From: Escherichia coli
GTDB taxonomy: Bacteria > Pseudomonadota > Gammaproteobacteria > Enterobacterales > Enterobacteriaceae
Assembly: GCF_044324875.1 (NCBI RefSeq)
Contig: NZ_CP172185.1
Direction: 5' to 3' (one strand)
Length of the DNA stretch: 64,000 nt
Part shown: positions 52,249 to 57,489 of the stretch, one piece after another
How the letters are laid out: every line of letters starts with the position of its first letter
How positions within the stretch are numbered: position 1 is the first letter of the stretch
The notes under the pieces: model-generated
Databases searched by the model: none
The model's input: the letters and a program-made list of their open reading frames with translations, nothing else
Told to the model about the DNA's origin: nothing
Position numbers and translations under genes: made by a program

Positions 52249-55200
52249 ATGGCTTCAACAAATGCGCATCAAATAAAAAATAATGATCAAAACTCTTTAT
52301 GTGGTCTGGGTGACAAAATACGCCGCCTGACCGCCGGAGTTTGTTTATTTACACAAATTTTTTTCCCCGTCATGGCGACGGCACAAAATGTGGTACACGC
52401 TAAGCCTCAGACGACAGTTTCATCTCCGTCCCCTCTAATAGAAAATAATACTGTGCCTTACACGCTTGGTGCGCTGGAATCAGCGCAAAGCGTTGCTGAT
52501 CGATTCGGTATTTCACTGGAGGAGCTTCGTCGTCTTAATCAGTTCCGTACTTTTGCTCGCGGCTTTGATAACGTGCGCCAGGGTAAAGAGCTGGATGTTC
52601 CGGCAACAACCTTGCAGAAAAGTCATGAGCAACAAAATGCCGTACCGCCTGCGAATGGCGAAAACACGCTGGAGAATCAAATAGCCAGTACTTCGCAGCG
52701 AGTTGGCACCCTGCTTTCACAAGATATGAATAGTGAGCAGGCCAGCGGCATGGCGCGTGGTTGGGCGTCTTCAGAAGCCTCAGGCGCGATGACTGATTGG
52801 TTAAATAACTTTGGCACTGCGAAAATCTCTCTGGGTGTGGATGAAGATTTCAGCCTGAAAAATTCGCAATTCGACTTCCTGCATCCGTGGTATGACAAAC
52901 CCGATTATCTGCTCTTCAGCCAGCATACCCTTCACCGAACAGACGATCGTACCCAGATCAACACCGGTTTGGGCTGGCGTCATTTCACCCCCAGCTGGAT
53001 GTCAGGCATCAACCTGTTTTTTGACCACGACCTGAGCCGCTATCACTCCCGCGCGGGGCTTGGCGCAGAATACTGGCGTGATTATCTGAAGTTGAGCAGC
53101 AACGCTTATATCGGCCTGACCGGCTGGCGTAGCGCACCGGAATTGGATAATGACTACGAAGCCCGCCCGGCCAACGGCTGGGATTTACGCGCGGAAGGCT
53201 GGTTACCAGCCTGGCCACAACTGGGTGGAAAACTGGTCTATGAACAATACTATGGTGATGAAGTGGCGCTGTTTGACAAGAATGATCGCCAAAGTAATCC
53301 CCATGCTATTACCGCGGGCCTCAACTATACCCCCTTCCCGCTTCTGACTCTCAGTGCAGAACAGCGTCAGGGGAAGCAAGGTGAAAATGACACACGTTTT
53401 GCCGTTGATCTGACCTGGCAACCCAGCAGTTCAATGCAGAAACAGCTTAACCCGGACGAAGTGGCCGGACGGCGCAGTCTGGCCGGTAGTCGTTATGACC
53501 TGATTGATCGCAACAACAACATCGTTCTGGAATATCGCAAGAAAGAGCTGATTCGCCTGAGTCTGCTGGATCCGGTGAAAGGAAAGTCTGGAGAAATAAA
53601 ACCGCTGGTTTCCTCGATACAGACCAAATATGCCCTGAAAGGCTATAACATCGAAGCCGCTGCGCTGGAAGCTGCCGGAGGTAAAGTCAGCACGTCTGGA
53701 AAAGATATCACGGTCACGCTGCCAGGTTACCACTTCACTAACACTCCAGAAACCGATAATACATGGTCGATAGACGTTACCGCCGAGGATGTAAAAGGTA
53801 ACCTGTCACGTCATGAACAAAGTATGGTCGTCATTCAGGCTCCGACATTAAGCCAGAAAGATTCTCTGTTATCCGTTAATCCGCTAACCGTAGCTGCAGA
53901 TAAAAAATCGACGACCACATTGACCGTTACTGCACACGATTCCGACGGAACTCCGGTGCCGGGGCTGGCGCTGCAAACCCGCAGTGAAGGCGTTCAGGAT
54001 ATCACCCTGTCTGACTGGACAGATAACGGTGATGGTAGTTACACACAGATACTGACCGCCGGAACGACATCAGGTTCAGTAACACTGACGCCGCAAATTA
54101 ACGGTGAGAGTGCGGTAAAAGAATCCATCGTCGTTAATATCGTCCCTGTTGTCTCATCCCGCGACCATTCATCAATAACAATAGATAACGTATCGTATTA
54201 TGCCGGAGACGATATCAAGGTTAGGGTGGAACTGAAAGACGACAGCAATCAACCGGTTGCTTATCAAAAAGAAGAATTGGTAAAAGCCGTTACTGTCGAA
54301 AACAGCAAACCTGGAGCCACGATTGTCTGGCACGAAGAGCAGCCGGGCGTTTATGCCGCGAATTATCCGGCCCATAAGCAAGGGACAGCACTAAGGGCAC
54401 AACTTAGCCTTCACAACTGGAATGCTCCACTGCAATCGCATATTTATAACATTGAGGCAAACCAGAATAAGGCTCGCGTCGCCACATTATCAGCGACGAA
54501 TAATGACGTTTACGCCGATAAAAAGACATTTAATACCCTCACTATCAACGTCACTGATGAGAGTGATAATCCCCTGACAAATCATCAGGTCACCTTTAAG
54601 AATGAAAATGGAAGCGCGGAATTTGTCGAACCGCCGCAGCAAAATACGGATGCATACGGTGTTGCCACAATCAACATGGTAAGTCAGGTTGCGGAAGAAA
54701 ATTCGATTAGTGCCACGCTGCCAAATGGTTTCTCACAACGGATAATTGCGAAATTCGTTAGTGATTCGAGTACGCCAAAATTCAAACAACTGGTTGCCGA
54801 TCCAGATACCATTATTGCTGGCAACAGCCAGGGCAGTACTCTGACCGCCACCGTCACAGACTTTCATAACAACCCATTAAAAGATATGAAAGTGAATTTT
54901 GTGGCACCTGGTGGTTCGCAACTGGACAACACGACCGCCACAACAGACCAGTCCGGTATTGTGCGAGTGCACCTGACCAGTTCAAAAGCTGGTAGCTATT
55001 CCGTCGATGCCTCGCTTGAGGCGGATAAAAATATTCACCAGTCGGTCACGATCACCGTGGTCCCAAACAGGGAACAATCGGTAATGACCTTAAATGCCGG
55101 GTCAGGCAGTGCGATCGCTAACAATACAAATACCGTTATCCTGACAGCCAGTGTGAAAGATGTGTATGGACACCCGTTGCCGGATGAGGATGTGAAATTT

Positions 55201-57489: not shown

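Follow-up and report, generated by a model that had tools for sequence, protein, structure and literature searches.

An intact iatD allele of Escherichia coli, its predicted invasin-like tip and the diverged 10.4-kb haplotype that carries it

The name iatD goes back to Goh et al. (2019, mSphere, PMC6714894), who cloned the gene from E. coli strain SMS-3-5 (EcSMS35_4876, 5241 bp). The SMS-3-5 protein was surface-exposed by immunofluorescence and its overexpression in K-12 led to strong biofilm formation, and IatD showed no autoaggregation and no binding to extracellular matrix (ECM) proteins (PMC6714894). The same study reported that IatD orthologues share more than 98% amino acid (aa) identity among themselves, that FdeC is not one of the inverse autotransporters (IATs) that carry a LysM domain or lectin-like cap, and that the genes for FdeC and IatC lie at other chromosomal loci (PMC6714894). 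YeeJ, another IAT, promotes biofilm and occurs in two length variants (Martinez-Gil et al., 2017, PMC5595812). The LysM domain of YeeJ binds peptidoglycan experimentally and aids surface localisation (PMC5595812). Here we compare with these systems the gene at 52249..57489 (plus strand) in a 64,000-nucleotide (nt) stretch of E. coli DNA (RefSeq assembly GCF_044324875.1, contig NZ_CP172185.1; hereafter the window).

The gene is an uninterrupted open reading frame (ORF) with an ATG start and 1746 codons plus a stop, and it is the sole long ORF at that locus. Alignment of its product with SMS-3-5 IatD showed 1714 of 1746 residues identical (98.2%) with zero gaps, and for this reason we regard the gene as SMS-3-5 iatD itself and not a mere relative. 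The 32 substitutions fall mostly in the distal passenger, and the first 112 residues are identical. Among the matches listed by megablast against 5426 complete E. coli genomes, the closest was strain O17_K12a (99.1% identity, gene order yjiJ-iatD-kptA), whose IatD shows 24 differences from the window protein. On this sequence evidence, the ORF is almost certainly an intact iatD allele that encodes, on the E. coli chromosome, an inverse autotransporter adhesin of type Ve. A sequence-only reading of the window, made by a model from the letters and a list of ORFs, had given exactly these coordinates and this length and had assigned the product to the intimin/invasin-family inverse autotransporters. 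The assignment stood, but the gene already had its name from the 2019 study. That year's publication already covered the gene with its domain plan, variable presence and biofilm phenotype, and RefSeq annotates iatD by name.

The order of signal peptide, LysM-like segment, barrel, immunoglobulin (Ig)-like stalk and lectin-like tip (Table 1) is the defining order of type Ve. As read from the translation, the putative signal peptide combines a basic KIRR motif with a 17-residue hydrophobic core and an ATA/QN site at aa 43-46, and the N-terminal region aligns with the YeeJ N-terminus from aa 20. The Pfam IAT_beta model was matched over positions 2-279 of 279 by aa 148-423 with an E value of 7e-109, and the solved barrels of invasin (4e1t, 1.3e-81) and intimin (4e1s, 3.6e-67) were matched by sequence. 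The barrel sits N-terminal to the passenger, as membership of the inverse autotransporters requires. After a D00-like segment at aa 436-536, Big_1/Invasin_D3 Pfam matches with E values from 1e-7 to 3e-19 tile aa 537-1536 as about ten domains. The stalk also matched PDB sequences of the Ig domains of FdeC (4e9l, 1.9e-28), of invasin (1cwv, spanning IatD aa 1257-1713) and of intimin (6tpl). Both the beta-barrel translocator and the series of Big-1-type Ig-like repeats had been proposed from the sequence with a Pfam search as the suggested check, and that search found them.

The tip was modelled with AlphaFold2 (AF2). The model of aa 1540-1746 had a mean predicted local distance difference test (pLDDT) score of 96.2 and a predicted template modelling (pTM) score of 0.90. 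Foldseek against the PDB placed invasin 1cwv first (TM 0.81, root mean square deviation 2.6 A, E 8e-13) and intimin second (1f00 at 2.6e-7, and 1e5u), followed at probability 1.00 by eukaryotic C-type-lectin-like domains (CTLDs) from snake-venom lectins, LOX-1, CLEC12A and the mannose receptor. Because of this ranking the tip is predicted to consist of two domains, an invasin-D4-like Ig domain and, C-terminal to it, a C-type-lectin-like domain. The Pfam Invasin_D4 match spans aa 1556-1624, and phmmer aligned the tip with invasin D4-D5 at 4.6e-6. An exhaustive search of representatives for homologous tips gave 274 clusters at E <=0.001, of which 30 were aligned; a word-indexed search yielded 5. 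Cys1660 and Cys1742 were invariant in the 30 homologous tips and Cys1660 aligned with an invasin Cys, and from this conserved pair we infer a Cys1660-Cys1742 disulfide bond. Four residues past the aligned Cys, phmmer pairs an invasin Asp with IatD Asn1664, and Asp1665 is adjacent. That Asp is the putative integrin-binding D911, which is not clearly conserved in IatD, and the alignment speaks neither for nor against integrin binding. The Cys-containing lectin-like C-terminal domain of the sequence-only reading is thus borne out by the AF2 and Foldseek results and by the invariant Cys pair. This structural confirmation of an invasin-like tip that Pfam misses is a mildly new by-product of the analysis.

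Table 1. Features of the iatD locus, with positions in the window and the evidence for each.
Feature	Position	Strand	Evidence
iatD coding sequence (CDS)	52249..57489	+	1746 aa plus stop, intact; ORF list and translation, annotated iatD in E. coli genomes at 97-99% identity
Shine-Dalgarno-like GGAAGG	52238..52243	+	5 nt upstream of the iatD ATG, read from the sequence; start shared by annotations of the Prokaryotic Genome Annotation Pipeline (PGAP)
Extended N-terminal signal peptide (aa 1-45)	52249..52383	+	KIRR, hydrophobic LTAGVCLFTQIFFPVMA, ATA/QN site; read from the translation by eye
LysM-like periplasmic segment (aa 68-117)	52450..52599	+	Pfam LysM E 0.027, partial; about 90% identity to K-12 YeeJ LysM
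IAT beta-barrel translocator (aa 148-423)	52690..53517	+	Pfam IAT_beta 7e-109; invasin and intimin barrels
Passenger stalk: D00-like segment and about 10 Big_1/Invasin_D3 Ig-like domains (aa 436-1539)	53554..56865	+	Pfam and PDB matches
Invasin-D4-like Ig domain of the tip (aa 1540-1651)	56866..57201	+	Pfam Invasin_D4 7e-6; all-beta part of the AF2 model; Foldseek match to invasin
C-type-lectin-like tip domain (aa 1652-1746), with Cys1660 and Cys1742	57202..57486	+	AF2, Foldseek, conserved Cys, phmmer
Hairpin with 12-bp stem, probably a terminator	57505..57532		Between convergent iatD and kptA, 15 nt past the iatD stop
Repetitive extragenic palindromic (REP)-like element	57558..57585		Pattern search: 2 copies in the window versus 0 expected
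10.4-kb alternative haplotype block	47236..57641		espX6-like gene, divergent yjiK and yjiJ, iatD, kptA 3' end; window versus K-12

When compared with described proteins, SMS-3-5 IatD showed no structural difference, with the same 1746-aa length, the same locus and the same neighbours, including a pentapeptide-repeat gene. The closest paralogue was YeeJ of K-12 (b1978), which has the same domain order and 49% identity over 1553 aligned residues. In the LysM, barrel, D00 and first Ig domains the two are about 80-90% identical, and a tip annotated as YeeJ is about 47% identical to that of IatD, but yeeJ lies next to asnT and its 2339-aa product has more Ig domains. With this identity, another locus and another length, the gene was not taken as an orthologue of yeeJ. 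Invasin of Yersinia pseudotuberculosis resembles IatD in its barrel and tip fold, and the stretch of IatD that aligns to the invasin fragment Inv497 is aa 1257-1713. However, the tips share 24% identity and IatD has more than twice as many Ig domains. Intimin (Eae) of enteropathogenic and enterohaemorrhagic E. coli (EPEC/EHEC) belongs to the same secretion class and has a related barrel and tip fold, but its tip is 14% identical, and iatD lies outside the locus of enterocyte effacement (LEE) and has no Tir partner. Identity with intimin was rejected by the NCBIfam model intimin_all, which scored 363.4 bits against a cut-off of 1400, and identity with IatC by Ve_IatC_Nterm, with 1124.8 bits against a cut-off of 2400.

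By analogy with the family, the long signal peptide would carry IatD through Sec, and the LysM-like segment would remain in the periplasm, bind peptidoglycan and possibly dimerise. A 12-stranded IAT beta-barrel would be placed in the outer membrane by the beta-barrel assembly machinery (BAM), and, as for intimin and invasin, the C-terminal passenger would leave through its own barrel as a hairpin while the Ig domains fold one after another. About 11 Ig-like domains would then form a rod that measures several tens of nanometres and bears the tip at its end.

The flanking genes, yjiJ (50860-52038) and kptA (57610-58194, minus strand), were assigned via alignment to the annotated genome of O17_K12a, with which the window is collinear at 98.4% over 17 kb. 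The order yjiJ-iatD-kptA was found in O17_K12a, O157:H7 and SMS-3-5, and the position between the two genes agreed with that given from the sequence. In K-12 MG1655, kptA and yjiJ have their stop codons 12 bp apart with no gene between them, in agreement with the sequence-only reading. Its further proposal of a strain-variable locus was upheld by the genome counts. Full iatD was present in 638 of the 5426 genomes (about 12%), annotated as 'inverse autotransporter IatD' among the matches listed, versus 4750 genomes with the compact K-12-type junction. The other 1165 matching records were partial with 60-80% identity and, among the matches listed, were the paralogue yeeJ at about 76-77%.

The difference from K-12 extends beyond iatD. 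Window positions 47236-49954 and 51990-57641 had no K-12 counterpart, and the segment between them (49955-51989, with yjiK and yjiJ) was 81% identical to K-12 versus 95-97.5% for the DNA around the block. The whole 10.4-kb block was contiguous in 604 genomes, about 4700 showed the 81% segment alone, and no intermediate haplotype was seen when the ranking was sampled at even intervals. The kptA product is 194 aa long in the window and in other iatD carriers versus 184 aa in K-12, where kptA lacks the last 10 codons and stops directly after EFLEW, and the 3' end of yjiJ differs too. These gene ends suggested a simple recent deletion in K-12, but this was not adopted because yjiK-yjiJ is 19% diverged between the haplotypes. 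The comparison instead points to two deeply diverged haplotypes and not to a single-gene indel. When the tip was searched against one genome per bacterial species, no relative turned up, hence no outgroup was available for the ancestral state.

The block also holds a low-GC gene (0.31-0.43) at 47604-49694 on the plus strand that encodes a 696-aa pentapeptide-repeat protein and is absent from K-12. In O157 genomes this gene is annotated as espX6, a type III secretion system (T3SS) effector. The espX6-like gene was present in 635 of the 5426 genomes, a count nearly equal to that of iatD, and that iatD travels with an espX6-like effector gene in a diverged 10.4-kb haplotype is mildly new. The adhesin and the effector might be functionally coupled in this old haplotype, loosely as intimin and Tir are, or co-regulated via the neighbouring SdiA-regulated gene. 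We consider this very improbable; the evidence for the pair is co-inheritance and nothing tested favoured a functional link.

The window copy of iatD is intact and has no run of eight C (C8), whereas in iatD of O157:H7 such a run has gained one base at nt 177, and the frame stops at codon 67. The C8 tract lies at 1677-1686 of the O157:H7 sequence L003, equivalent to about 52425 in the window, and the gene is annotated there as frameshifted. In that O157:H7 strain kptA is likewise frameshifted. A 101-nt probe across the C8 site matched 313 of 614 carrier genomes at >=99%. Since the span across the probe is one base shorter in O145 and others, the tract could be a slippage-prone switch. Another route of inactivation was found in strain GN03139 (NZ_CP147532.1, 4162019-4168596), where iatD is interrupted by an IS3-family transposase. 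These population counts, in which about 12% of the genomes carry iatD and about half of the copies appear frameshifted, are a mildly new by-product of the analysis.

Several results weigh against the identification as a functional iatD, or against parts of its domain plan. No dedicated NCBIfam IatD model was matched by the window protein, and the best NCBIfam model was the IatC N-terminus, over aa 12-838 and under its cut-off. Pfam gave no lectin-like domain match in the last 120 residues. The Pfam LysM match to aa 68-117 was weak and covered 22 of 43 model positions, and the AF2 model of aa 56-130, built from a 3-sequence alignment, was poor (pLDDT 63) and all-helical with no beta strands. 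The best natural PDB matches were the LysM proteins 4uz2, 4xcm and 8i2e, weak at E 0.001-0.02; the designed helical toroid repeats 5byo and 4yxz, which ranked first for the N-terminal segment in the PDB, were taken as chance matches to one helix. With about 90% identity to the LysM domain of K-12 YeeJ, the segment is accepted as a probable LysM domain by homology, so that the LysM-like segment of the sequence-only reading was retained although the direct Pfam, PDB and AF2 results were weak. The biofilm role of the window allele would follow from a 98%-identical orthologue overexpressed in heterologous K-12, which tempers its use as evidence for the native role. About half of the iatD copies, mostly in O157:H7, also appear to be frameshifted pseudogenes of the C8 type, so that the gene would be dispensable in at least one lineage. 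Nothing was found that contradicts the identification as iatD.

Among the alternatives to a functional adhesin gene, a chance or mis-assembled frame with no real gene has a practically negligible probability; nothing was found in its favour, and against it stand the strong full-length domain matches, the equal gene length in hundreds of independent complete genomes and the experimental detection of the orthologue protein (PMC6714894). Another alternative is iatD as a cryptic, normally silent relic that is under loss and functionless in most carriers. About 88% of genomes lack the gene, 313 of 614 carriers have the O157-type frameshift, one copy has the IS3 insertion, and the region upstream is AT-rich (39% GC), which would be typical of H-NS-silenced adhesin genes. 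We nevertheless find such a relic quite improbable, as the window allele and many others keep the 5.2-kb frame. Purifying selection is likely because this frame is intact and distant strains share 98% aa identity. For the functional adhesin gene that we prefer, the remaining alternative concerns the target of the tip.

Like invasin, which binds beta1 integrins, and intimin, which binds Tir, IatD could be mainly a host-cell adhesin or invasin whose lectin-like tip binds a specific eukaryotic receptor, with biofilm formation as a side effect of overexpression. The tip fold is nearest to invasin D4-D5 (TM 0.81) and intimin D2-D3, the tip module is widespread with its 274 representative clusters, and iatD is co-inherited with the espX6-like T3SS effector gene. 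However, the putative integrin-binding Asp of invasin (D911) aligns with an Asn, and in the pathogenic O157:H7 lineage iatD has become a pseudogene. The orthologue also showed no adhesion to ECM proteins (PMC6714894). A host-cell role is accordingly a possible but unlikely alternative to the reading of iatD as a type Ve adhesin gene with a published biofilm phenotype.

The sequence-only reading had also proposed that the Ig-domain repeats are prone to recombinational length variation, and this found no support. Tandem Repeats Finder reported nothing within iatD. The sole direct repeat was a 25-nt pair of 72% identity, the longest exact internal DNA repeat was 12 nt, the best self-BLAST match covered 46 nt at 78%, and no two Ig domains of IatD share more than 41% aa identity. 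Among the full-length matches listed, the span was always 5241 nt, or 5242 nt in O157:H7, and Goh et al. likewise saw no variation in repeat number (PMC6714894). Because the internal repeats are short and diverged and the length is constant, iatD would be a poor substrate for recombinational length change, in contrast to yeeJ with its two length variants.

A scan upstream of iatD found promoter sites no more numerous than in shuffled sequence. Downstream, the hairpin between iatD and kptA had a predicted energy of -23.3 kcal/mol (z -5.6, with 0 of 200 shuffles as stable). A scan for consensus terminators did not call it because its T-run is short. A second REP similar to that near kptA lies at 40828-40855.

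Elsewhere in the window, the 'immigration control region' of K-12 is present in a variant form at 27976-38032. It comprises a Fic-family gene (27976-28710, minus strand), a GmrSD-type restriction gene (28754-30853, minus strand) and a type I restriction-modification operon in the order M-S-R (31129-38032). The region of the specificity gene at 33543-34664 did not align to the genome that is otherwise closest, so its target specificity probably differs. Arrays of REP and bacterial interspersed mosaic elements (BIME), called naRNA4 (five tandem copies, then two), and a three-gene tRNA-Leu(CAG) cluster were found at 552-1032, 8669-8862 (minus strand) and 9002-9324 (plus strand).

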